Positions 176 to 39,894 of a stretch of DNA of 45,691 nucleotides are shown here, one piece after another. A program made the position numbers and the translations under genes. The DNA is taken from IMG/VR virus record IMGVR_UViG_2531839130_000007, positions 1 through 45,691 of that record. One strand, written 5' to 3'. Under the pieces are notes generated by a model. That model was not told the DNA's origin and did not search any database. It was given only the letters and a program-made list of their open reading frames with translations. Source of the DNA: a virus (lineage: Duplodnaviria; Heunggongvirae; Uroviricota; Caudoviricetes). Position 1 is the stretch's first letter, and each line of letters starts with the position of its first letter.

Positions 176-1120
176 ACGGTAAATCAGGCTTCTGGCGCAT
201 TACAGAAAAACCAGAACGGCGCAGATATTCCGGGAAAAGATACCTTCACCAAAAATATTGGTGCCTGCCGCGCATATAGCGCATGGCTGAATATTGGTGG
301 CGATAGTCAGACCTGGACAACCGCACAATTCATTTCGTGGCTGGAGAGTCAGGGGGCATTTAACCATCCTTACTGGATGTGCAAAGGCTCATGGGTTTAT
401 GCAAATAATAAGGTCATTACAGATACAGGTTGCGGAAATATTTGTCTTGCAGGTGCTGTGGTGGAAGTTATTGGCACTCGCGGCGCAATGACCATACGCG
501 TTACCACGCCGAGCACGTCCAGTGGTGGCGGAATTACTAACGCTCAATTCACCTATATTAATCATGGTGATATTTATGCTCCTGGCTGGCGACGAGACTA
601 CAACACGAAAAACCAGCAGCCTGCATTTGCTTTAGGGCAAACAGGAGGCAGGGTTGCAAATGATAAAGCTGTTGGCTGGAACTGGAATAGCGGTGTTTAT
701 GATGCAGATCTCAAAGACGCAACAGCATTAATACTCCACTTCAATATGAATACGGGGAGTTGCCCTGCCGTACAGTTCCGCGTGAATTACAGGAACGGCG
801 GTATTTTTTATCGTTCAGCGCGTGATGGTTATGGATTTGAGGCTAACTGGTCAGAGTTTTACACCACGACCCGCAAACCCTCTGCGGGAGATGTTGGTGC
901 ATACACGCAGGCAGAATGTAACTCAAGGTTTATTACAGGTATTCGCCTTGGCGGTCTGTCATCTGTTCAGACATGGAATGGCCCCGGCTGGTCTGACAGG
1001 TCAGGTTATGTCGTTACGGGTTCAGTTAACGGAAACCGTGATGAATTAATTGATACAACTCAGGCAAGGCCAATTCAGTATTGCATTAATGGAACGTGGT
1101 ATAACGCGGGGAGTATTTAA
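158..1120 (+). CDS. Tail-fibre C-terminal variable cassette (Sv-like); no independent start, frame opens inside the left crossover site
   Basis: Frame is open from the TAA at 155-157 to 1120 (first ATG at 377). First 25 codons are encoded by the inverted repeat and shared with the opposite cassette. Ends ...INGTWYNAGSI, the motif shared by the other fibre proteins here. Confidence 0.65.
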   Translation, partial: NLGLQETVNQASGALQKNQNGADIPGKDTFTKNIGACRAYSAWLNIGGDSQTWTTAQFISWLESQGAFNHPYWMCKGSWVYANNKVITDTGCGNICLAGAVVEVIGTRGAMTIRVTTPSTSSGGGITNAQFTYINHGDIYAPGWRRDYNTKNQQPAFALGQTGGRVANDKAVGWNWNSGVYDADLKDATALILHFNMNTGSCPAVQFRVNYRNGGIFYRSARDGYGFEANWSEFYTTTRKPSAGDVGAYTQAECNSRFITGIRLGGLSSVQTWNGPGWSDRSGYVVTGSVNGNRDELIDTTQARPIQYCINGTWYNAGSI

Positions 1121-1122
1121 TT

Positions 1123-1656
1123 ATGATGCACTTAAAAAATATTACTGCTGGCAACCCTAAAACAAAAGAGCAATACCAGCTAACGAAACAATTTAACATC
1201 AAATGGCTTTATACAGAGGATGGGAAAAACTGGTATGAGGAACAAAAGAATTTCCAGCCAGACACTTTGAAAATGGTCTATGACCATAACGGCGTTATTA
1301 TTTGTATTGAAAAGGATGTTTCAGCAATTAATCCGGAAGGCGCAAGCGTCGTTGAATTACCTGATATTACAGCAAATCGCCGTGCTGACATTTCGGGTAA
1401 ATGGATGTTCAAAGATGGCGTAGTGGTAAAGCGAACTTATACCGAGGAAGAGCAGAGGCAGCTGGCGGAAAATGAAAAGCAAAGCCTGCTACAGCTCGTC
1501 AGGGATAAAACCCAGCTATGGGACTCACAGCTACGGCTGGGCATCATTTCCGACGAGAATAAACAAAAATTAACCGAGTGGATGCTCTATGCGCAGAAAG
1601 TCGAATCTACAGACACTTCCGGTCTGCCAGTAACGTTTCCCGAACAACCAGAATGA
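1123..1656 (+). CDS. Tail fibre assembly chaperone (Tfa / Mu U-like)
   Basis: 177 aa; N-terminus [20 protein letters not shown] is paralogous to the ORFs at 1685..2212 and 42015..42563; sits directly after a fibre-tip cassette. Confidence 0.8.
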   Translation: MMHLKNITAGNPKTKEQYQLTKQFNIKWLYTEDGKNWYEEQKNFQPDTLKMVYDHNGVIICIEKDVSAINPEGASVVELPDITANRRADISGKWMFKDGVVVKRTYTEEEQRQLAENEKQSLLQLVRDKTQLWDSQLRLGIISDENKQKLTEWMLYAQKVESTDTSGLPVTFPEQPE

Positions 1657-1684
1657 GAGAAGGCCCGCTATCGGGCCTTAATTT

Positions 1685-2212
1685 TTACTCTGGTTTTTGT
1701 GGCCATTCAGGATTTGCCGTATCCACACGGCTGACCAGAACACTGTAGCGTTCCCATGCTTCCAGTCGTGTGCGTTCCTCGTCTGTTGCCATATTCAGCC
1801 TGACAGCGCGTTCCAGCGGCTGGATGACTGATTCAGCTTCGGAAAGCAATGCGGCCTTTTGTGATTCGGCCTGTTGTTGCTGTTCGTCTGCTGTATAAAT
1901 CCGCTTAACCACAGTTCCGTCCTTAAACATCCACTTCCCTGAATCATCGGCACGACGATTGACTGTTATATCTGGAATCTCAACGACACTAAAGCCTTCG
2001 GGATTAAGCGTTGAGGCATCTTTGGTTATGGCAACAATAATATTATTTTCGTCGTAAACAATCTTTATGGTGTCTTCCTGAAAGTTATTTACTTCCTCAT
2101 ACCAGTTTTTACCGTCTTCTGTATATAACCAGATAACATCAAAATTCTTTGTTAGCTGATATTGCTCTTTTGTTTTTGGATTTCCTGACTTAATATTTTT
2201 TAAATGCTGCAT
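1685..2212 (-). CDS. Tail fibre assembly chaperone, alternative copy (U'-like)
   Basis: 175 aa, [20 protein letters not shown]...; convergent with its paralog inside the invertible segment. Confidence 0.8.
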
Positions 2213-3369: not shown

Positions 3370-3792
3370 GAAGATAAATTAAGCGGGACAAAGACTGACC
3401 GACCGGGATTAAAACGCGCTTTAAAGCGCCTTCAACAAGGTGACACGCTGGTTGTCTGGAAACTGGATCGCCTCGGGCGAAGCATGAAACATCTGATTTC
3501 TCTCGTCGGAGAACTACGGGAGCGAGGGATTAATTTTCGCAGCCTTACTGACAGTATTGATACGTCATCCCCAATGGGGCGTTTTTTCTCCCACGTTATG
3601 GGTGCCCTGGCTGAAATGGAACGAGAACTAATCATCGAGCGAACAATGGCAGGACTTGCTGCCGCCAGAAATAAAGGCCGTATTGGTGGGCGACCACCTA
3701 AACTAACCAAAGCGGAATGGGAGCAGGCCGGGCGTTTATTAGCACAAGGAATCCCCCGCACTCTGAATCACGGGCCATCAGTTATGCACTGA
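3277..3792 (+). CDS. pin: Serine DNA invertase, Pin/Gin/Hin/Cin family; C-terminal DNA-binding helix appears missing
   Basis: [23 protein letters not shown]...[24 protein letters not shown] matches remembered Pin/Gin nearly residue for residue, then diverges ([10 protein letters not shown]-stop) where the recognition-helix region should follow. GTG start. Confidence 0.8.
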
Positions 3793-4136
3793 AAACCATA
3801 AGGTTACTGTATCCGTCAGTGGAGTGGGTTCAGTCCTTTGCAGACGAACGCTGCGGACGTGCAGGCGTTGTGTATCAGGCGTCGAATTTTGATTTTATTG
3901 GCAGTCATGAAAGCACGTTCTACGAGCTGGATGGTGAGTGGTATCACGAGATAACGATGAACGCAATTAAACGCGGTGGACAACGAGGCGTGTATTTACG
4001 GGCTAATAAAGAGCGTGCCGCAGTGCACAAATTTAATCAGTATCGCTGCATCAGATTCCTGAACAAGCGAGCAAGGAAGCGGCTAAATACTAAACTATTC
4101 AGGGCTCAGCCATACCCCAAAAGCAGTTCGGATTAG
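3717..4136 (+). pseudogene. ORF fused downstream of the truncated invertase; possibly the C-terminal remnant of a Mom-like gene
   Basis: Overlaps the pin 3' end in another frame with no convincing start. Mom assignment rests on Mu gene order (G segment, gin, com, mom) and a weak recollection of the family; not verified. Confidence 0.25.
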
Positions 4137-4225
4137 TGTTAGATAAATTCAATGAGCTTATTAACTAGACATGACATTATAGTATGGAAAACTTGATATC
4201 TTTATCCATACACGGAGCATATTAG

Positions 4226-4672
4226 ATGAAAAAAGCAAAATTGCTAATCAGTGCCATCATCGGCTTATTTGTACTAACCGCCCCTTCAGTCAGTCATGCT
4301 CAAGAAAAAGATTTTGATCCTGAAGTTGCAGCTGATGCAATCTTAAGGTCGGCAGGGATAGATCCAGATAAGAATATTGTCAATAAAGCTCCTGCCTCTG
4401 GTTTTTGGGCCTGCCACGGTATTCGTCTGCATATGGGTGTTGATATGGGGTCATGGACTGATCTTGATACTGGTGAACTATACACTCAGACAGAAACAGG
4501 CCAGATTGATGAGCAAGACAAGGATGAAAAGATTAAAGGGACTGATTATCTATATGCTTCAACCAGAAACCCTGCGGTTGTAAAGTATTTTATCGTTGAT
4601 AAATCTGGAAAAAATCTTTATATCCGAGATGATATAAAGTTCTTCAAAACATATAAATGTAAACGAAACTAA
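4226..4672 (+). CDS. Small secreted protein of unknown function (AT-rich cargo gene)
   Basis: 148 aa with typical signal peptide MKKAKLLISAIIGLFVLTAPSVSHA; locus is visibly AT-richer than its flanks, with its own AT-rich upstream region and a downstream hairpin. Confidence 0.6.
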   Translation: MKKAKLLISAIIGLFVLTAPSVSHAQEKDFDPEVAADAILRSAGIDPDKNIVNKAPASGFWACHGIRLHMGVDMGSWTDLDTGELYTQTETGQIDEQDKDEKIKGTDYLYASTRNPAVVKYFIVDKSGKNLYIRDDIKFFKTYKCKRN

Positions 4673-4701
4673 TACTGGTATACCCAAAACTGTCTCAGTT
4701 G

Positions 4702-4751
4702 AAGCGCGAAAGTTTGTATTTTCGTGTTTTGTTTGAAACGCTTTCGCGCTT
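4702..4751. terminator. Candidate bidirectional hairpin between convergent genes
   Basis: aagcgcgaaag (4702-4712) pairs with ctttcgcgctt (4741-4751), followed by a T-run; the loop is long (28 nt), so weak. Confidence 0.3.
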
Positions 4752-4764
4752 TTCATGAGCCGGC

Positions 4765-6222
4765 TCAGTCAACAAATTCACCACGTGATGCAGCAAGCAA
4801 TTTGTCGGCATCGACAGGATTTTTTGATGGATTGTTTTTCCGGGCTTCATGGAGTTCTTCCCGCAGTTCCTGATATTTCGCATCAACAGAATTTACCTGT
4901 GACTGAGCATCCAGCGGCTGCGTGTCCTGATGATGTTCAGTTGCATCCGGTTCCACTGTTTCAGCCGTTGCCTGTTCATTTGCCATTGCGCAAGATGGTT
5001 GCGGTTTTTCTTCATCATCCTGTTTTTCTTCTTCTGCTACACGCTGCGGCATTGGGGCAGAGGAGCGACCGCAGGCAATATCCACGATTTCCGGATCAGG
5101 GTTGGCATGATCGGTTTCAGTCAGCACCCTGCTCAGATATTCGGTGACACGGTGGTGGGTAGCCTCGATACCAATTGGTGCTTCTTTTACGGACGCAACC
5201 ACAATGGCGCGGGAATAATCCAGCCCGCCAGGCATGGTGATGAATTTGTCGCGGAAAACAGAAAAGGGCGGTTTATTTTCAGCGATAATTTCCTCAATGC
5301 GTTTAGCGTGTGCCGGATGAAGGTTATAGATGTCCACGTCCATTGAACGGGCCAGTACGCCAGTGGCTACGTCGCGCGCCAGTGACGTAAGATCGTGGAC
5401 GAAACCTTCGCCGCGATCGGTGAGGTTCCCGCCGCCAGCATTAGCACCGGAAGCCGTGCGAGTGATGCGTGAAACACGATTCCCTTTTCGCCATTCTTTT
5501 GTCAGAAGACCGCGATCAATGTGTTCGGTATCCAGCCAGGCTGAAATGAAATTCTTAAATTCATAGGGCTGATGTTTTTTCGTGATAGAGAAAACTGCCT
5601 TAATTGCATCAGTCAGGCGGAGCAGGGCGGCATTATCCAGAGTTGTTGGCTCTGCCATGCCGCGTATGGCCAACAGCAGATTCTGGACATAGCTGTTTTC
5701 CTGGTCCATCTCAAGAGCAGTAATGTGTTCGCGTTGTTCACGGGTGGCATGATGCAGGTATTTCCGATCCCCGGCCGCATACGTAAAAATGTGCAGAAGA
5801 CGCTGTGTGAACTGCAAAGTGGCTACAGAGACTTCGCAATCCTGGCAATCCCCGTGGGCGTCTGCCTGCGCGTTTTCTTCCTGGCCTACCGCCAGTTCTT
5901 TGGTTTCCTGAGCATTATCCTGGTGGTGAACGTCGTCTGGCGCTGCTCCCGGTTTTAGTTCCCAGGTCATGGAGTCTTTGCTGAGTTGATAGCGTTCACT
6001 CCAGGTAAAATCGATCTCACCTTCAGGGGGCAGGTCATTAACGACAGGAAAATTAGTTGCAATAGCTTTAAAATAGTTGCTCAGTTTTTTACCTGACTTA
6101 ACGATCAGGTAGTCCAGAGTGGCACAGGTTGATTCAAAATCGTCGCTTGCCCACAGGACGACGTCAGGCTCACCGGATGATTTTTTCGCTTTCCGTAAAA
6201 GGAAGAGTGGTTTTGTGCTCAT
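4765..6222 (-). CDS. recE: RecE (exonuclease VIII) N-terminal region only; nuclease domain absent
   Basis: N-terminus [46 protein letters not shown] and later blocks ([30 protein letters not shown], ...[11 protein letters not shown]) match remembered Rac RecE; ORF stops where full-length RecE continues. Gene order fits Rac. Confidence 0.6.
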
Positions 6223-13484: not shown

Positions 13485-13775
13485 CCTGGCCGGAGGCATT
13501 CACAACGACAGGAATTGCAATGGCGTCGGCACTTGTTGTGTATTCGGTTTGCAGATGGGGATAAAAACGGTTTGCGGGGAAATCTTAGTTAAGTAGAATG
13601 ACTGCGGGTGCTTGAGGCTATCTGTCTCAGGCATGAACACCAAAAGGCAGATAGAGAAAAGCCCCAGTTAACATTACGCGTCCTGCAAGACGCTTAACAT
13701 TAATCTGAGGCCCAATCTATGTCTCACAAATGTAGGTTAGCCTCTTACGTGCCGAAAGGCAAGGAGAAGCAGGCT

Positions 13776-13931
13776 ATGAAGCAGCAAAAGGCGATGTTAA
13801 TCGCCCTTATCGTCATCTGTTTAACCGTCATAGTGACGGCACTGGTAACGAGGAAAGACCTCTGCGAGGTACGAATCCGAACCGGCCAGACGGAGGTCGC
13901 TGTCTTCACAGCTTACGAACCTGAGGAGTAA
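13776..13931 (+). CDS. hokD: Hok/Gef-family type I toxin (HokD/RelF-like)
   Basis: MKQQKAMLIALIVICLTVIVTALVTRKDLCEVRIRTGQTEVAVFTAYEPEE: single TM helix plus conserved Cys and RTG...VAAF-like tail; AGGAGAAG Shine-Dalgarno; structured leader and terminator. Confidence 0.85.
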   Translation: MKQQKAMLIALIVICLTVIVTALVTRKDLCEVRIRTGQTEVAVFTAYEPEE

Positions 13932-16243: not shown

Positions 16244-16319
<76 letters not shown>

Positions 16320-16322
16320 TAT

Positions 16323-16397
<75 letters not shown>

Positions 16398-31492: not shown

Positions 31493-31566
31493 ATGTAAAA
31501 ACAGCAGCTCAGTTTCGTGAGCTGCGTAAATGCACGACGCCGGGAGGTGTATTGAATGTCAGGTAA
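31249..31566 (+). CDS. -1 frame extension of the tail chaperone (GT-like product)
   Basis: Frame -1 relative to the chaperone opens at 31249 inside the T8 tract and runs to 31566, overlapping the tape-measure start. Confidence 0.35.
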   Translation, partial: TRFFYMRLVDKHTGADGADDAGSQWNVEQSHFILESYGMDCFIADIEACRQFWRDGEHVISDILDYSAGDGFSDIWANSGLNVKTAAQFRELRKCTTPGGVLNVR

Positions 31567-33544
31567 TCAGATGCCAGTTCTGACACTGGACGTTAATGAA
31601 GAACATCTTAAGCGACTTGAGGCGATATTTGAAAAGTATCGCAACGGGCTGATGATTGGCCCTGCCGGTACGCCTCTTAAAATACCTTCAAATATAGATC
31701 CGGGAGGTGGCGTCCGGCAGACAACTACAGGCGGAGATGCCAATCAGGCTCCCAGGAAACCATCTTCACCCGCGCCAGTTTCGGCTGCTTCCACTGATGG
31801 ACGTTTAAGGGATGAAAAAGGGCGCTTTGTTGGAAGCGGGAAAACACCTGATTCGCTGGTGAGCAACTATAAAGGTCGCGGCGAAACGATGTTTGATAAG
31901 TACCTCAGCGGGCTGGGTAAAAACGCTCAGGGGACGCTGAAAACTTACAAACAGATCAATTCAACGCTTAAAACGACTAATTCCCGGTTAAAAAGCCTGT
32001 TTAAAACCACGGTTTCGTGGGGGGCGAAAATAGCTGCAATAGGGGTTGCGGGGCCGTTTGGCTACGGCTATATGGCAAGTAAAGTCGCAGCACAGTATAG
32101 CGTGGCTCAGGGGTTAGGGGTGGAAACCGCCCAAATGCAGGCCGCACGTGCCACCTATTCGCCATATTTTTCTGGCACAGAAGATCTGGTTCAGCATCTG
32201 GCTAACGCACAGAAAAACCCGAACGATCCAAACTATGCTGGCCTGGTTAGTCTTGGAATTGATCCGCGAGATGGTGCTGCAAAGAATCTGCCCAAACTTA
32301 TGAGCGCGCTTGCATCTCTCGTTAAGCGATATAAAGGTTCAGGACTTACTCAGGGGATTCTCAACGGACAAGGGCTTGGATTTGTTGATGTCGCGACAAC
32401 TAACCAGGTGGAAGCGAATCTGGACAAGATCCCCCAACTGAACGAGAAATTTGCATCAAATACCAGGTTGCTCGGTGCTTACCTCACGCCAGCTATGCAG
32501 TCAGGTTATCAGGACACGGTGAGTAACCTGATGGTAAATGGAAACAGAATATCAAATTCCTGGTATGCAGCTCTCGCCAGATATAACCCACTAATCACAG
32601 GTGCATCTGATGGGCTGACATCCAATATTGAAGGTTTTCTGAATGGTGGAAATTTTCAGAAAATTCTCACTGAGGCTGGCGAAGGGCTGGAGAAACTTGG
32701 TAAGTGGCTGAATAGCGAACAATTTAAAAATGATCTTGACGATTTTTCTCTGGCGGTGAGCCGGATTGCAAAAGCAATATGGTCAGCTATCAAATGGATC
32801 GGTGGGGAAGATAAATATCTCCCCGGAACCGGAGTTGGTGCTGAACAGGCAGATCCAGTTCTTGCGGCATTTGGAAATAAATATCTCAGTGGTGCGTTGC
32901 CGGGAGCAAACCCGATGACAAATCAGTATACGGGTGAGTTTTATAAACAGGATGATGTATATAAAAATTACCGTATGCCTAATGATTTAAAGAGAAATAT
33001 TCAGAACTTTGTAGAGCAAGCCAATAATACTTATCGACTTCCTAAAAATATGATGTCAGCTATCGCAGAAGTTGAATCTTCGTGGAATCCTCTGGCAAGA
33101 GGAACTCCAGATGAAAAAGGTAGATTCGCTAAGGGGTTGTGGCAATTCTGGGATAGCACCGCAAAACAGTATGGTCTGGTGGGTGATGATGTTTATGATC
33201 CAAATAAATCCACTCTTGCGGCTGGCCGCTTTTTAAATGATCTGAATCGGCGTTATAAAGGCGATGTGGCAAAAATGCTTACGGCATATAACGGAGGTCG
33301 TATTGATAGAGATGGAAATCTAAGTTTGAGAATGGAGACTGTAAAATATTTAATTAAATTATTGCCTCAGATTCAGGGAGCCTTGGATCAACACCCTGGT
33401 ATTATGAGTCAGCTAAGAAATGCCAGAGATAACCTTCAGGGTGCTGGCAAAAATGCCCGCGCAATAATTGAGCTTCAGGTGCGACAATCGCCGGGTTCCG
33501 ACATACTGGCACAACTCGCCGGAACGCAACAAATACCGGGGTAA
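31556..33544 (+). CDS. Tail tape-measure-position protein with C-terminal lytic transglycosylase-like domain
   Basis: 662 aa; C-terminal motifs AEVESSWNPLA, GLWQFWDSTA and AYNGG resemble SLT domains. Confidence 0.55.
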   Translation: MSGNQMPVLTLDVNEEHLKRLEAIFEKYRNGLMIGPAGTPLKIPSNIDPGGGVRQTTTGGDANQAPRKPSSPAPVSAASTDGRLRDEKGRFVGSGKTPDSLVSNYKGRGETMFDKYLSGLGKNAQGTLKTYKQINSTLKTTNSRLKSLFKTTVSWGAKIAAIGVAGPFGYGYMASKVAAQYSVAQGLGVETAQMQAARATYSPYFSGTEDLVQHLANAQKNPNDPNYAGLVSLGIDPRDGAAKNLPKLMSALASLVKRYKGSGLTQGILNGQGLGFVDVATTNQVEANLDKIPQLNEKFASNTRLLGAYLTPAMQSGYQDTVSNLMVNGNRISNSWYAALARYNPLITGASDGLTSNIEGFLNGGNFQKILTEAGEGLEKLGKWLNSEQFKNDLDDFSLAVSRIAKAIWSAIKWIGGEDKYLPGTGVGAEQADPVLAAFGNKYLSGALPGANPMTNQYTGEFYKQDDVYKNYRMPNDLKRNIQNFVEQANNTYRLPKNMMSAIAEVESSWNPLARGTPDEKGRFAKGLWQFWDSTAKQYGLVGDDVYDPNKSTLAAGRFLNDLNRRYKGDVAKMLTAYNGGRIDRDGNLSLRMETVKYLIKLLPQIQGALDQHPGIMSQLRNARDNLQGAGKNARAIIELQVRQSPGSDILAQLAGTQQIPG

Positions 33545-34216: not shown

Positions 34217-34479
34217 CAACGTTAATTCCTTTCAAACCGGACGGGCGAGGTCCGTTTCAGTTCACGGCCAGAATCGGAGAATATGAAACATTCGCCCGCG
34301 TTCCGTTTAATCTGTACGCAAACCGTTACTATCTGGAACTGAAAGACAGTTCTGGCAAGGTCATTGTATATACGCCTCTGATTGCTTCCCCTGATGGTTA
34401 CGATATTAATCTGGCGCTTCTATTTGCGCCGGGAAGGCTCATTTTTCGTGAAAGTACTAATCAGTTTGAGGTTTCGTAA
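34213..34479 (+). CDS. Small tail protein
   Basis: 88 aa, translationally coupled to neighbours. Confidence 0.4.
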   Translation: MTTLIPFKPDGRGPFQFTARIGEYETFARVPFNLYANRYYLELKDSSGKVIVYTPLIASPDGYDINLALLFAPGRLIFRESTNQFEVS

Positions 34480-35486
34480 TGCGTTATTACCGCCTGGAAA
34501 TCATTAACCCTAAAACAGGCAAGCCGCCAGTGGATAGCAACGGAAAACCTATCGGGCCTTTTGATACCAGTAAGACACCAGGTTGTGGGTTACATGTTGA
34601 ATTTGACTTTGAAGTAACCGGCCTGGATGTAGTCAGGTCTGGCACGATGCTGACGATCTACGGATTACCAATCGAGATGTTGAAGCAAAGTGTGAATTTG
34701 CAGGGGTGTCTGGTCCGTATGAAAGCGGGCTTTGTTGAGGGATTGCCTTTGGCAAACCCGGAACAACAGGGTGAAGTAATCTATGGTGAAATTTATCTGG
34801 CCTACGCCAACTGGATTGGCACAAACCAGACTTTAAATCTGGTCATTAACCCCACCATACGCAAAACCGATGACGGTAAACCGTTCTTTATCAAGGGCGA
34901 AGGGCGAACCGGGGAAAAGGTGGGTGATGTTATCTCCCGCGCGTTGCAAAAGGCATTTCCGAATAAATTGATCGATTGTACCGTCAGCGACAGCCTCGTT
35001 TTGCCAGAGCCGTGGAATGGAACCTACGAAGACATTGGTTCGCTGGCGATGGTTCTCCGTAGTGCTTCAATCGCAATGATACGCGATGAGAAATATAGTG
35101 GAGTTACCATCAGCATCCTTTCAGACAGAATACGAATTTACGATAACGCGTCAGCAAAGTGGGGAGAGCCCAAAACAATTCATGCCCATGAACTGATTGG
35201 GCAGCCGACCTGGATAGCGCCGTTTACTGTCAGTTTCAAATGTCCTCTGCGGGGCGATATCAGGTGTGGTGATGTGGTTAAATTGCCGGAGGGGCTTTAC
35301 TCCGGCGCTGCGTCGATTGTGATGGCTAACACAACAGCCCCCAGTGTTATCTCCAAAAATTCGACCACGTTCACCGGAAAATTTCTGGTTAAGTCTGTCA
35401 GACACATTGGAGCATATCTTACTGCTGACGGCGATGCCTGGGTGACGGTTTTCGAGGCATATGCTGAGAACTGGGTGAGGGGGTAA
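34479..35486 (+). CDS. Baseplate hub-like protein
   Basis: 335 aa immediately upstream of the spike gene. Confidence 0.4.
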   Translation: MRYYRLEIINPKTGKPPVDSNGKPIGPFDTSKTPGCGLHVEFDFEVTGLDVVRSGTMLTIYGLPIEMLKQSVNLQGCLVRMKAGFVEGLPLANPEQQGEVIYGEIYLAYANWIGTNQTLNLVINPTIRKTDDGKPFFIKGEGRTGEKVGDVISRALQKAFPNKLIDCTVSDSLVLPEPWNGTYEDIGSLAMVLRSASIAMIRDEKYSGVTISILSDRIRIYDNASAKWGEPKTIHAHELIGQPTWIAPFTVSFKCPLRGDIRCGDVVKLPEGLYSGAASIVMANTTAPSVISKNSTTFTGKFLVKSVRHIGAYLTADGDAWVTVFEAYAENWVRG

Positions 35487-36199
35487 TGTCAAACGCTCAA
35501 AAATTACCGCTTCTCCGAACGTTGTCGGAGATGATGACCAGCTCTGGTAACCAGCAAGCCGAGCTGAAAGGACGGGAATTACCCTGTCATGTGGTGGCGG
35601 TGAACGGTCAGATAGTCACTGTTCAGTTCGATATGTTGCCAGAGGGGATCACCTTTCCTCAGATAACAATACCTGTGGCCACGTTCCCGTATATCCGTTT
35701 CCCGATACAACCAGGAGATCAGGGAGTGACGATCGCCGCCGATGTATCCCTGCGCGGTGTGTCCGGATTAGGGACAGGAATGGCGACTCTTTCCTACTCG
35801 ATGTCGCTGACACCGCTGTTTTTCGTGCCTCTGGCAAACAAGGAGTGGTCCGAAGAAGATCCGCGAAAAATTGTGTTATACGGTCCTGACGGCGCAATTA
35901 TTAAAACAGAGGACGGAAGCAGCTCGGTAACGGTGGCGCCGGAAGAAATCAGGCAAAAGTCGAAGGTAGTTTACCTCGAGGCCGAAGATATTTTCCTGAA
36001 CGGTCAAATTCACCTCAACGGACCGATCGTCCAGGACAAAGCCCAGATGAAGGATACAACCGCTTCGCTGATTGGTCCTCTTAAGGTCGAGAAAGATGCA
36101 GTTATCAACGGCGTGAGCGCCAGCAGCCACAGTCACGATGTGACTGGTGTTCAAAGCGGTGGCAGTACGATCACGTCGAAGAAACCAAATCCGGGTTAA
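35486..36199 (+). CDS. Baseplate spike protein (gpV-like)
   Basis: 237 aa; Gly-rich C-terminal segment with SHSH histidine motif typical of spike apexes. Confidence 0.55.
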   Translation: MSNAQKLPLLRTLSEMMTSSGNQQAELKGRELPCHVVAVNGQIVTVQFDMLPEGITFPQITIPVATFPYIRFPIQPGDQGVTIAADVSLRGVSGLGTGMATLSYSMSLTPLFFVPLANKEWSEEDPRKIVLYGPDGAIIKTEDGSSSVTVAPEEIRQKSKVVYLEAEDIFLNGQIHLNGPIVQDKAQMKDTTASLIGPLKVEKDAVINGVSASSHSHDVTGVQSGGSTITSKKPNPG

Positions 36200-36241
36200 T
36201 ACCGGTTCATTTCACTTTAAATACTACCCATAAAACGAAAA

Positions 36242-36278
36242 CCCCGACTGTTGGCCCAGTCGGGGTTTTCTGTTTCTG
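36242..36278. terminator. Strong intrinsic terminator after the spike gene
   Basis: 9-bp stem ccccgactg/cagtcgggg with loop ttggcc, then ttttctgtttctg. Confidence 0.7.
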
Positions 36279-36303
36279 ACCTTGAATAAGGCAAGGAGAA
36301 GTC

Positions 36304-36441
36304 GTGTTTGATTTTAGCAAACTGATTCGGGAGATTCGAGTTATGGCTGAAAAATTATCCACCTGGAAGTTTTTGCTTATTTGGTTGGTCTTTCTGATTC
36401 TGGCGTCTGGGTATTTTGTTGGCCAGATCCGATGGTGGTGA
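36304..36441 (+). CDS. Candidate small membrane protein (45 aa, not in the ORF track)
   Basis: GTG start 3 nt after AAGGAGAAG; product VFDFSKLIREIRVMAEKLSTWKFLLIWLVFLILASGYFVGQIRWW has one hydrophobic helix. Speculative. Confidence 0.25.
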   Translation: MFDFSKLIREIRVMAEKLSTWKFLLIWLVFLILASGYFVGQIRWW

Positions 36442-36448
36442 GGGCACG

Positions 36449-36796
36449 ATGAGAACATGGGGCCGCGTAACCGACGCGAACGGCAACAAAAAATGGGTTG
36501 CTATAGAATCTGACGCCAACGGTGATTTCTCCTACGGCTGGCTGACGACGCTCATTCAGACGTTAAAGCTGGGGTTGGGGGAGTCGCCGTTTTACGCGAA
36601 TTACGGCATTCCAGCGCAGCAGTGCATCGTGCAGCAGATTTACCCGGACTACTATGTGAACATGGTTCAGCAACAGTATGCCGGGTATTTTGCATCGCTG
36701 GCAATTTCAAAAGTGGATGGGGCAGAGAACCCCACCTATAACATCGATGTTGTGTTTTTTAACGGAACCAGTTACCGGACGCAGGTTCCGGTTTGA
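36449..36796 (+). CDS. Small baseplate protein (gpW-position)
   Basis: Start at ATG 36449; 115 aa, the size and position expected for a gpW-like wedge protein between spike and J-like genes. Confidence 0.4.
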   Translation: MRTWGRVTDANGNKKWVAIESDANGDFSYGWLTTLIQTLKLGLGESPFYANYGIPAQQCIVQQIYPDYYVNMVQQQYAGYFASLAISKVDGAENPTYNIDVVFFNGTSYRTQVPV

Positions 36797-37335
36797 GGCA
36801 AGTTTTCGGGCATCAATTGGGCCAGTGGCGTATTAAGAAGTTCATCGCGTGGCATGACAATCCATCCACTTTTGCGTAGTAAGTGAATTGCCCATTCTGT
36901 GGTTATAACTGAGCCTGATTTGTGATGCTCAATGTGGGTAACCGATCCGTTTCTGACGCGCATGATGATGTCAACATTCAGAGGGGATTGTGTGCTGGTA
37001 GTTTCTTTGCGTAGTTTCTTTTCGCACTCGATGAAGTATCGGCGGATCTGGCGTCCTTTTTCGTTGCGCTCGACCATTGCCAGTTCTTTGGCGGTGTCCA
37101 GGGTGAGGTGGTAGTCCTTGCGGTTGTGGCCTCCCCGGCCTTTTGCTTCCCGAATTTGGGAAGCAATCACATAGTCCTGATTTTCTACGAATTCATACTC
37201 GCTAAGTCGCTCGGTGATCCAAGTGGCAAAGCGCTTACCTACTTCGAGAAAGGCATGCAGATCGCGAGCGTTGCATAGAAGGGTGGTTTCGTTTGAGATA
37301 GTTCCGTTGAAAACGGGGATCAGTTGGGTTGTCAT
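36772..37335 (-). CDS. Phage antirepressor (Ant, KilA-C-type domain)
   Basis: 187 aa; block DYHLTLDTAKELAMVERNEKGRQIRRYFIECEKKL matches the antirepressor C-terminal domain as remembered; AAGAGG upstream of ATG 37335; opposite strand to the tail operon. Confidence 0.65.
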   Translation of the reverse strand: MTTQLIPVFNGTISNETTLLCNARDLHAFLEVGKRFATWITERLSEYEFVENQDYVIASQIREAKGRGGHNRKDYHLTLDTAKELAMVERNEKGRQIRRYFIECEKKLRKETTSTQSPLNVDIIMRVRNGSVTHIEHHKSGSVITTEWAIHLLRKSGWIVMPRDELLNTPLAQLMPENLPQTGTCVR

Positions 37336-37614
37336 GATGACCTCTTGTATCTTTTTCGAAGAAGAACCAAAGTGGCGTCGGGAGGTTCGAAACGGCTACA
37401 AGTACCGCGGACTTATTCCCCTTTCGGGTGTTGTATTCGTCGCCCTCCCGACATTGATCGGGGATGTGGTTGCACATGATGCAACCACTGAAAAAATAGG
37501 CATAAAAAATCCAACACTGACGGGGTTGGTTGCGTACCGCTTGTAAGAGGTTTCGACGCCTCAGTTCGGATTGTAGCCAGAGTTGGATGCCGTAGTCAAT
37601 TTAATGATAGTGCA

Positions 37615-38088
37615 TCATATCTTTTTGCCCTCAAGATGGCACTGGTAAGACGTTCCGCCGTGTTCATAAATCGCCCAATCAATAGCTTCTCCAGAAATCC
37701 GATTAATAGTTACGTGAGATTGAGGAATCCAATTAACTTTATCCCTAGATGCCTCGACAGTATATTCTATACGTAGGTCATTAATTGTTGGGCGATTGAC
37801 TCTAAACCAAGTATCATCACGGCCTAATGATTCGTTGTTTTGCATTATAATTACTGATTCAGTAAACCACGTTGTTTTTTTACCATCGGCAACACATGCA
37901 TTTCCAGAGTCAATTCTAATATTAAAGCATAATTTATCATTTAAAAGGTAAGGTTGGGGCCAGATTGCGGAGGTTGCGGTGTCGTTGCTATTAGATGGCT
38001 TACATATTATTCTTGATATGTTAGATGAGTGTGAAGAAAAACTCACAAAAAGAAGTAGGGATAAAAATTTCAATTTCATAAATATCAC
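37615..38088 (-). CDS. Secreted protein of unknown function (AT-rich cargo gene)
   Basis: 157 aa with N-terminal signal-like segment (M)KLKFLSLLLFVSFSSHS, several Cys; local sequence clearly AT-richer than the tail genes. Confidence 0.55.
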   Translation of the reverse strand: MIFMKLKFLSLLLFVSFSSHSSNISRIICKPSNSNDTATSAIWPQPYLLNDKLCFNIRIDSGNACVADGKKTTWFTESVIIMQNNESLGRDDTWFRVNRPTINDLRIEYTVEASRDKVNWIPQSHVTINRISGEAIDWAIYEHGGTSYQCHLEGKKI

Positions 38089-38097
38089 CGCCTGATT

Positions 38098-38646
38098 TTA
38101 CATGTTTTCTTTACAGGAATTGATTGCAGCTTTATATGCTTCCGGGAGGCCATCTAATGGGAAGAATAGTTTTTGTGGTTTTTCTTTGCTTTCAGCTGGC
38201 GGAGTGTACCAAAAAGAAAAACTACCTTTCCCTTTAGCTTTTAACAAATCACTAATCTTTAATGAGCTAATAGGACTGAACAAGTAACCCTCATTGATAG
38301 ATGGGGTTGTTATAGAGTCCTGCTTTTGTTGTCCGCTGATTTTATAACTTACAGGAAGGAACGGTGGTAAATCCATTTGTTTATATCCAATAAAATGATT
38401 GATAGTTACATCACCGGGCTCACATTGAGTTAATGGTGATATATCAATAAATAAAGTTGATTTATCCTGTGGCAATTTGGATTCAACACCAATACGATAA
38501 GCCATAGTGGTAGGCATGGTAAATTCAGCATAATACCATTTACCGAACTGTTGAATGTCATTCATTCTCTCTGTGGCATCAATTGCATGAGAAACACCAG
38601 AAAATAGCAGTGAGCTAATCAAAATCCCTAATGAGTTAAATTTCAT
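38098..38646 (-). CDS. Secreted protein of unknown function (AT-rich cargo gene)
   Basis: 182 aa with signal peptide MKFNSLGILISSLLFSGVSHA; AGAGGA 4 nt before the ATG; 10 bp upstream of the next gene in the same orientation. Confidence 0.55.
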   Translation of the reverse strand: MKFNSLGILISSLLFSGVSHAIDATERMNDIQQFGKWYYAEFTMPTTMAYRIGVESKLPQDKSTLFIDISPLTQCEPGDVTINHFIGYKQMDLPPFLPVSYKISGQQKQDSITTPSINEGYLFSPISSLKISDLLKAKGKGSFSFWYTPPAESKEKPQKLFFPLDGLPEAYKAAINSCKENM

Positions 38647-38655
38647 AAAATCCTC

Positions 38656-39894
38656 TTGAGATTAATTATGTCAGAAATACCAATTACTATGACCAGTGCG
38701 GGTGCGCAGCCTACGCCACCCAATGATTTGCTTGCGAATCTTATCACCAGAGTTGCTGAAAAAGTACCTGGATATACAGCCAACCTTCCGGCGGGGCTTA
38801 TTACAGACCTTGCCAGCACGGCTGTCGGGGCGCTGGCATTAATAGATCAGGCGCGAGTGGATCTTATTAACTCCGTCAGTCCATACGGCGCGAATATTCC
38901 TCTACTGATGCAACTCGGAAACATTTATGGAGCACAGAAGGGATTAAGTACAAATACGGCGGTATACGTGGTGTTTGAGGCGTTGCCGGGGTTTGGTATC
39001 CCTAAAGGATTTGTGGTTGGAGACGGTAACTACCAGTATGCGGTTTCCCGCGATACGGTGGTGCCGGAAAGTGGGCAGACTGAACCAGTCTACTGTGTGG
39101 CCACTACGTCAGGCTCATGGGCTGTACCGGAAGGGACCGTGACGCAGGTCATTACATCAGTACCCAAAGACCAGCCTGTAAAATGCACCAACCTAACCGC
39201 AGGGATGCCAGGTCAGGAGGCGCAAACGTGGGCATCATACCGCGCCGAAGTCATGGAGTCCGGCATGTTTGGTGTGCAGGGAACACCGGATTGCTTTAAA
39301 GCGATGCTCAAATCAGTAAGCGGTGTGCGAGAAAACCTGATTTCTTTCCGGCAGTCGTCGTTGGGGAAATGGGTTGCGGTTGTTGGTGGCGGTGATCCGT
39401 ATGATGTGGCTTATGCGATTTACAAATCCGTACCGGATATTTCGAAACTGACCAACGATGTAAGCAATCCATCCGGTGCGGCAGTGGAAAAACGCACGGT
39501 TTCAATAACCGTTTCGCCGGACGTTTATCAGGTGCCGTTCGTTATCCCGTCATCACAAAACGTCATGGTGCTAATCACCTGGAACACGGTGTCTGATGAT
39601 TATGTTGATCCGGCGGGTATTGCTATGGCAGTGCAACAAAACGTTGCTGATTACATCAATTCAATTGAAGTCGGACACCCGATAAATCTTCTGCGTATCC
39701 AGGATATTTTTACCAGTTCTGTCAGGTTGCTGGTTGATGCGACGTTGATCTCAACAATCAGTGTGAGCATTGGCATTAACGGCCATATTGTTCCTCCGGC
39801 AAAAGACACAAGCCTGGTTTATGGCGATACCTATTCCTATTTTTCAACGGTGGCATCACAGGTTCAGGTCAACAAGTATGCAATATCTGACTGA
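38656..39894 (+). CDS. Baseplate protein (J-like)
   Basis: 412 aa (or from ATG 38668) immediately upstream of an I-like gene and the tail fibre gene. Confidence 0.5.
   Translation: MRLIMSEIPITMTSAGAQPTPPNDLLANLITRVAEKVPGYTANLPAGLITDLASTAVGALALIDQARVDLINSVSPYGANIPLLMQLGNIYGAQKGLSTNTAVYVVFEALPGFGIPKGFVVGDGNYQYAVSRDTVVPESGQTEPVYCVATTSGSWAVPEGTVTQVITSVPKDQPVKCTNLTAGMPGQEAQTWASYRAEVMESGMFGVQGTPDCFKAMLKSVSGVRENLISFRQSSLGKWVAVVGGGDPYDVAYAIYKSVPDISKLTNDVSNPSGAAVEKRTVSITVSPDVYQVPFVIPSSQNVMVLITWNTVSDDYVDPAGIAMAVQQNVADYINSIEVGHPINLLRIQDIFTSSVRLLVDATLISTISVSIGINGHIVPPAKDTSLVYGDTYSYFSTVASQVQVNKYAISD

Follow-up and report, generated by a model that had tools for sequence, protein, structure and literature searches.

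The DNA studied here, referred to as the window, is a stretch of 45,691 nucleotides from a virus of the class Caudoviricetes (IMG/VR record IMGVR_UViG_2531839130_000007). It carries three minus-strand open reading frames, flanked on one side by the gpW-position gene (end at 36796) and on the other by the J-like baseplate gene of a Rac-SA53-like Escherichia coli prophage. They encode an antirepressor (Ant) and two putatively exported proteins of 154 and 182 amino acids (P154 and P182). On balance, the block is best regarded as a composite accessory ('moron') locus, placed at a recombination hotspot between the gpW-position and J-like genes and built from three independently inherited modules. 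An earlier reading made from the letters alone (the sequence-only reading) had located the three genes correctly and had taken them for a single insertion, a description replaced here by that of three modules. That accessory exported cargo occupies a variable hotspot is very probable; superinfection exclusion as its specific role, argued from sequence comparison, is put forward tentatively.

The W-J junction was compared across related genomes. At least 80% of a 2.9-kb query was found in 10 of 5426 complete E. coli genomes, and about 90 E. coli genomes had both conserved flanks (90-99% identity) with other contents between them. Sixty-seven loci having both flanks, taken from RefSeq, GenBank phages and IMG/VR, fell into 19 architectures; since the sources overlap and the RefSeq loci were picked by hand, the locus counts given in this text are not frequencies. 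A J-based scan of GTDB genomes returned one distant locus only. Over all architectures, homology breaks off and resumes exactly at the ATG of J. Most of the J-proximal alternatives (listed in Table 1) bear a signal peptide, a lipobox or a membrane helix, and in some loci a YafO toxin pair adjoins W. The cargo was thus variable at this junction, as had been proposed, the same two conserved genes enclosing genes that some relatives have and others lack or have replaced. The sequence-only reading had named one outcome as contrary to it, namely conserved structural tail components in all relatives, and this was not what was seen: P182 and P154 are replaced or absent in most relatives, are encoded on the opposite strand and have signal peptides.

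The commonest alternative among the fetched loci is the 391-amino-acid cargo (22 IMG/VR loci; L027-type, about 3790-4960, plus strand), which replaces ant and the secreted genes. The protein is cytoplasmic, has a type I restriction HSDR_N domain (PD-(D/E)xK) and gave no match to PADLOC models; it may be an uncharacterised single-gene defence nuclease. Some record labels look doubtful: PP818812.1 (locus L002), named 'Actinobacillus phage vB_Apl-pPE4', matches E. coli prophages of this family at about 95% identity over 77% of a 3.5-kb query, and two 'DH5alpha' genomes (H122, H125) gave coverage and identity equal to the E. coli W-type prophage.

The G+C content is 0.34-0.37 over positions 37650-38700, against 0.47-0.55 in the flanks. 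By gene it is 0.36 for P182 and 0.37 for P154, so that the two distal genes are indeed AT-richer than the tail genes (about 0.50) and have the deviant base composition of a moron; ant, at 0.50, does not depart from its neighbours.

P182 is an old resident of the slot. Its family comprises just 17 clusters among 5.8 billion proteins, all of about 182 amino acids and all from Enterobacterales. In five divergent contexts (two Salmonella, one Buttiauxella and two metagenomic contigs) the gene always occupies the interval bounded by the 115-amino-acid gene and J, and is transcribed divergently from J. Compared with the proteins of the window, identity was 50-61% for P182, against 57-58% for J, 48-53% for the hub, 46-48% for the SLT-domain protein and 59-60% for the 208-amino-acid protein. 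Because the exact position is kept and the divergence is on a par with that of J, the hub and the SLT-domain protein, P182 has co-diverged with the tail module and has been replaced in many E. coli lineages; a recent arrival does not agree with this pattern. None of the five contexts had an AntA-family antirepressor; a Bro-N-domain gene was found in the slot of one Salmonella contig, and three contexts had no other called gene there. The pairing with Ant, which the sequence-only reading had considered meaningful, is incidental: P182 occurs without ant in distant relatives and with a 5'-truncated ant in others, while ant accompanies many other cargoes, and both are missing from 22 loci. In the prophage of Buttiauxella sp. 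S19-1 (L016), a trio of genes for Hcp, a Tlde1-domain protein and a 167-amino-acid protein (820-2182, plus strand) lies beyond the tail-fibre assembly gene and resembles an effector-immunity module of the type VI secretion system (T6SS).

P154, by comparison of its contexts, is a later, mobile addition. Its family has 36 representatives among 1.84 billion proteins. Within the slot it was confined to the window-type arrangement and a single locus with an adjacent P182 remnant. Elsewhere it is found in another kind of myovirus prophage, between head and fibre genes, in chromosomal contexts, and on a plasmid-like contig beside a 116-amino-acid signal-peptide protein and an LprI-domain lipoprotein. 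The gene had first been drawn from the alternative start GTG 38088 (157 amino acids); the start is most likely ATG 38079, as in the homologues.

Both proteins look exported, in agreement with the sequence-only reading. Judged by a heuristic check, both begin with a segment containing K/R, followed by a hydrophobic core and a cleavage region of small residues (AxA type). Cleavage of P182 is predicted after VSHA and before IDAT (after residue A21); in P154 the corresponding site falls between SSHS and SNIS (after S18 of the 154-amino-acid form). By the same check, a positive N-region, a core of at least 10 residues and small residues at -3 and -1 were found in all 13 members of the P182 family and all 15 of the P154 family, and this layout is kept in every homologue though the N-terminal sequence varies. 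The N-termini of both structure models had a predicted local distance difference test (pLDDT) score below 50. Mature P182 contains two invariant cysteines and mature P154 four, with even counts in every family member, as expected for periplasmic disulfides.

The ratio of non-synonymous to synonymous substitution rates was 0.11-0.15 for P182 and P154, that is, purifying selection acts on both genes. Reading frames that are spurious, or in decay, within recombination junk DNA might be suspected from the AT-richness, the lack of a described family and the frequent deletions and frameshifts in relatives, in several of which a deletion has joined a 5'-truncated ant to the cargo, and one of which (TUM9757) has a split 179-amino-acid gene; the selection and conservation data effectively refute this explanation, which is held to be extremely improbable.

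P182, P154 and all their family members gave no match in Pfam or NCBIfam and matched only PHROGs of unknown function, and neither protein matched the PADLOC defence-protein hidden Markov models (HMMs) at E up to 1; that the secreted proteins were not recognised at the outset is borne out by these searches. Profile searches of PDB sequences returned nothing useful, and there was no sequence or fold similarity to the periplasmic lysozyme inhibitors MliC/PliC, Ivy, PliG and LprI. Profile-profile comparison of P182 with P154 and with the 179-amino-acid alternative cargo detected no homology; the cargoes are therefore analogous, not divergent copies. Nothing specific was found in the literature on this phage, on the secreted proteins or on moron or exclusion roles of this kind.

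The only structural relative of the P182 model was IalB (PDB 3dtd, 16% identity), a protein named for its role in erythrocyte invasion, and the fold is accordingly described as IalB-like by prediction. The IalB HMM (PF06776) gave no Pfam match at E up to 10 among the 13 P182 members, and the profile search of PDB sequences with P182 did not recover 3dtd. The two groups differ also in their distribution, the IalB family consisting mainly of alphaproteobacterial chromosomal genes whereas P182 is restricted to one enterobacterial prophage lineage.

The arrangement of the genes suggests how the secreted pair would be expressed. The 18 nucleotides between P182 and P154 hold a ribosome-binding site and no hairpin, consistent with co-transcription as a two-gene operon starting in the J start region. 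The start of J is most likely ATG 38668 and not TTG 38656, because homology over all cargo types begins exactly there and the annotated homologues have 408 amino acids; the divergent starts of P182 and J are therefore 21 bp apart, not the 10 bp first reported. In the junction comparison, a variant of this 21-bp leader (AGTTAATCTCAAGG) was common to unrelated minus-strand cargoes, and P182, the 179-amino-acid protein and the 143-amino-acid lipoprotein had in common a leader of 14-20 nucleotides with a ribosome-binding site; plus-strand cargoes have a terminator hairpin of their own just before J. Since homology resumes at the J ATG and the leader is common to unrelated minus-strand cargoes, we infer that the promoter of these cargoes must lie in, or overlap, the conserved 5' end (first codons) of J. 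A candidate extended -10 element, TGACATAAT, overlaps the J start codon. Expression of the secreted pair from the prophage is considered fairly probable. Because this slot, behind the same leader, is filled in other relatives by unrelated envelope-targeted proteins, it appears to be an expression site for lysogen-envelope proteins.

P182 and P154 are most likely periplasmic accessory proteins made by the lysogen. According to the favoured explanation, the two genes would be read leftwards from the J start region as one operon, and the products, exported by the Sec pathway, would lose their signal peptides and become disulfide-bonded in the periplasm. There they may shield the lysogen envelope at the periplasmic stage of incoming tail penetration or DNA entry, and exclusion by P182 may be aimed at its own tail type. 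Protection against incoming phage is favoured because the slot repeatedly holds envelope-targeted proteins, or alternatively a nuclease or toxin pair, and because P182 tracks the divergence of the tail. A more specific version was also formulated, for which the chances are slight: the W-J junction would be a plug-in site with a fixed promoter and leader at the J 5' end and interchangeable envelope cargo, and P182 would exclude its own phage type by self-recognition, attaching in the periplasm to the spike, the SLT protein or J at the tip of the incoming tail.

Several observations weigh against the exclusion interpretation. Signal peptides were judged by heuristic and not with a trained predictor, and the structure models were of moderate confidence (pLDDT 70-72), with the other four models lower. 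Neither secreted protein resembles exclusion proteins, lysozyme inhibitors or defence proteins, and the IalB fold has no known molecular function. A consensus promoter scan called no promoter upstream of P182, and the extended -10 candidate would leave a leader of about 11 nucleotides only. That P154 also occurs on chromosomes and on a plasmid-like contig points to a benefit that does not depend on phages, and away from phage-specific exclusion.

This last point leads to the possibility that the exported proteins are host-fitness or virulence cargo, which would alter the surface or periplasm of the lysogen for a bacterium living in the animal gut and would not be directed at phages. Lambda Bor and Lom provide precedents, being changes of the lysogen surface or periplasm that benefit the bacterium (adhesion or invasion, serum or stress resistance). 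The carriers of the arrangement, mostly animal-associated enterotoxigenic (ETEC) and Shiga toxin-producing (STEC) E. coli strains, and the homologues of P154 outside phages agree with such a role, as does the name of the sole structural relative of P182. The IalB likeness loses force here, since the molecular role of IalB is not known and P182 has no sequence-level membership of that family. Every P182 gene found, moreover, occupied this phage position, and the protein has diverged together with those of the tail, so that a phage-linked role fits it better than a host trait. Host-fitness cargo was considered rather unlikely.

A further explanation, also unlikely and slightly more so, is that the slot gathers orphan periplasmic immunity proteins, that is, small exported neutralisers of cell-wall-targeting toxins (T6SS effectors, bacteriocins, lysozymes). 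Such immunity proteins are typically small, periplasmic and disulfide-bonded. One alternative slot cargo is annotated as an LprI-family lysozyme inhibitor, the P154 homologue on the plasmid-like contig lies two genes from the LprI-domain lipoprotein, and relatives of P154 and P182 were found near Hcp or Tlde1 genes in two genomes.

The proteins could also be helpers of the lytic cycle, acting in the periplasm during lytic growth, for example by stopping the injection of progeny into lysing cells or by modulating lysis. P182 stays beside J over a long divergence, its leader abuts the late-operon gene J, and the SLT-domain protein of the tail must act in the periplasm. Both genes are missing, however, from many apparently intact relatives and are oriented opposite to the late operon, and the Pfam and PHROG scans found no similarity to lysis proteins; this explanation was judged improbable.

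Protection of the lysogen against incoming phage, the reading retained here, has partial counterparts among known systems. Morons are known from tail regions, such as lambda lom and bor, phi80/N15 cor, T5 llp and the HK97-type morons. The block resembles them in that extra genes of deviant base composition, patchily distributed among relatives, are set among conserved structural genes in an orientation unconnected with that of the late operon and have envelope-targeted products. It differs in that the families are uncharacterised, in that P182 is old at the site and not recently acquired, and in that one short leader by J is common to several cargoes, so that the signals seem to be owned by the backbone. 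Spackle (Sp) of T4 inhibits, in the periplasm, the tail lysozyme of superinfecting phage. Like Spackle, P182 and P154 are small phage-encoded proteins, putatively periplasmic and with predicted signal peptides, and the murein-degrading SLT domain of the tail could be a target; no sequence or fold similarity was detected, and the parallel is a mechanistic analogy only. The P2/P4-type hotspots are anti-phage hotspots of temperate phages. They share with the W-J junction the fixed position and the alternative cargo, here including a nuclease-domain protein and a toxin-antitoxin pair, but the cargoes at this junction are mostly exported or membrane proteins instead of cytoplasmic defence, and none matches PADLOC models.

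The third module is the antirepressor gene. Ant matches Pfam PF08346 with 94.1 bits (cut-off 27) and the anti-repressor PHROG 14211 (E = 1.5e-76). The gene is present in about 40 of the 67 related loci, 9 of these being 5'-truncated, and absent from the remainder. The 279-bp spacer between P154 and ant (37336..37614) is structured, as the sequence-only reading had noticed, with a folding z-score of -2.87, and contains a full-length match to sRNA-Xcc1 (Rfam RF02221, model positions 1-87; 78 bits, gathering score 53; E = 7e-14) as well as a 9-bp hairpin. The promoter scan found a sigma-70-like site in the ant leader, which is a candidate only, since such sites are no more numerous in the region than in shuffles. 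The weak hairpin in the ant leader, downstream of the secreted genes, may serve as a terminator; a terminator scan with loops of up to 8 nucleotides made no call there. A LexA box was looked for upstream of ant and was not found. Ant has a promoter candidate and an sRNA-Xcc1 leader of its own, contrary to the link with the secreted genes drawn by the sequence-only reading.

The region from the N-terminal part of ant through the entire leader (about 37009-37599) is 79% identical to Shiga toxin (Stx)-type phages, and this homology stops at the promoter candidate; in the Stx-type phage TL-2011c, sRNA-Xcc1 likewise lies just upstream of the antirepressor gene. All six of the tested relative loci with a full-length ant had sRNA-Xcc1, one of them in two copies, and both of the tested loci with a 5'-truncated ant lacked it. 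In APSE phages the element lies upstream of an ORF6N-domain gene, and an sRNA-Xcc1 locus of EDL933 is listed as abundant and poorly ribosome-covered in RNA-seq and ribosome profiling (PMC5331693). Because the leader and element recur with antirepressor genes in relatives and in Stx-type phages, ant and sRNA-Xcc1 appear to make up a portable antirepressor module with its own expression signals, which occurs in Stx-type phages too. Most likely the RNA would silence Ant in the lysogen, acting either in cis or, once processed, as a small RNA. In layout the module resembles the immI-type regions (P22 sar-ant, P1 c4-icd-ant), where a small structured RNA with its own promoter lies directly upstream of ant on the same strand; the likeness goes no further than layout, as the RNA here is sRNA-Xcc1 and not sar or c4.

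Two sRNA-Xcc1 copies each were seen in two loci, at 2862-2947 and 3397-3486 of L084 and at 3610-3695 and 3823-3908 of L064 (IMGVR_UViG_3300015157_000078), all on the minus strand. In L064 a 122-amino-acid gene of the ProQ/FinO family (PF04352, E = 3.5e-15; about 4000-4370, minus strand) has been added between the tandem copies and P182, and its product could be an RNA chaperone partner of sRNA-Xcc1.

Table 1. Features of the gpW-J interval in the window, and J-proximal cargoes recorded at this position in the window and related loci
Feature	Positions	Strand	Description
gpW-position baseplate gene	36449..36796	+	115 amino acids; left conserved flank of the cargo slot
ant, AntA/AntB-family antirepressor (module 1)	36772..37335	-	187 amino acids
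sRNA-Xcc1-type structured RNA	37369..37452	-	Rfam RF02221; ends 34 nucleotides 5' of the ant start codon
Weak terminator-like hairpin	37501..37529	-	CCAAC-9 nucleotides-GTTGG, then a T run; read directly from the sequence
Sigma-70-like promoter candidate, ant leader	37570..37599	-	TTGACT-18-TACAAT; promoter scan, 10/12 matches
P154 (module 2)	37615..38079	-	154 amino acids; putative export; all-beta; 4 invariant cysteines; second gene of the secreted pair
P182 (module 3)	38098..38646	-	182 amino acids; putative export; IalB-like predicted fold; 2 invariant cysteines; adjoins J
Divergent intergenic leader	38647..38667	.	21 bp; ribosome-binding sites of P182 (AAGAGG, minus strand) and J
J-like baseplate gene	38668..39894	+	408 amino acids; right conserved flank; Pfam Baseplate_J, PHROG 6
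J-proximal cargo			P182
J-proximal cargo			179-amino-acid signal-peptide protein, unrelated to P182
J-proximal cargo			248-amino-acid signal-peptide protein; LprI family by PGAP name, sub-threshold Pfam match
J-proximal cargo			163-amino-acid signal-peptide protein with a 227-amino-acid cytoplasmic protein
J-proximal cargo			158-amino-acid membrane protein with a 129-amino-acid signal-peptide protein
J-proximal cargo			143-amino-acid lipoprotein
J-proximal cargo			202-amino-acid membrane protein
J-proximal cargo			391-amino-acid protein with HSDR_N nuclease domain; 22 loci, all without ant

The window region shares 95% identity with Escherichia phage Rac-SA53 (KU052037) and with prophages of several E. 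coli chromosomes, and two IMG/VR contigs matched it at 100% for six of the six marker proteins tested. The block interrupts a Mu-like tail module with the gene order SLT-domain protein (31556-33544), hub (34479-35486), spike-position (35486-36199), gpW-position, J/gp47-like, 208-amino-acid protein and tail fibres. The 3' end of the gpW-position gene overlaps that of ant by 25 bp. This gene is an annotated coding sequence of 348 nucleotides in Rac-SA53 and in RefSeq relatives (PHROG 7986, function unknown), and its product is 74-97% identical among relatives.

A second variable site lies at 36200-36448, between the spike-position and gpW-position genes. In the window a strong bidirectional terminator hairpin of 14 bp (36237-36270) is found there, together with a 45-amino-acid open reading frame that includes a hydrophobic stretch (36304-36441, PHROG 6632); in relatives the site contains a Rha-family regulator (STEC367) or gaps of 700-1500 bp. 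A match to sar at 36217-36271 was rejected, as it scored below the gathering score and coincides with the plain terminator hairpin. Elsewhere in the window, a hok/sok-type toxin-antisense module was found at 13606-13931 (plus strand; Rfam sok, 120 bits), with sok followed by an open reading frame that contains a 51-amino-acid Hok-like peptide (MKQQKAMLIALIVICLTVIVTALVTRKDLCEV...); in the Salmonella relatives L014 and L015 a HOK_GEF gene is placed within the baseplate region instead. Two adjoining tRNA genes, tRNA-Thr(TGT) and tRNA-Gly(TCC), lie at 16244-16397 (plus strand).

Morons and accessory hotspots in the structural regions of temperate phages are well known. What is new is limited to the two uncharacterised exported families (one with a predicted IalB-like fold), the long residence of P182 beside J, the backbone leader common to interchangeable cargo, and the consistent pairing of sRNA-Xcc1 with antirepressors. 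The sRNA-Xcc1 family is described as an integron-borne trans-acting small RNA of Xanthomonas (Chen et al. 2011). Its position upstream of antirepressors in two unrelated phage types suggests a role for this vaguely labelled 'virulence sRNA', namely in antirepressor cassettes, as their leader or regulator, and not in Xanthomonas-specific virulence. Both secreted families are carried mainly by livestock-associated ETEC and STEC strains, and if the exported proteins block superinfection or remodel the envelope, they would add two new families to the few periplasmic phage-resistance factors of E. coli. Should P182 be a self-recognising exclusion factor in a plug-in site, a molecular function would for the first time be assigned to the IalB fold, and a new class of periplasmic superinfection-exclusion proteins would be established. 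The roughly ten interchangeable envelope-targeted cargoes in one defined slot form a natural set that suits comparative functional screening.

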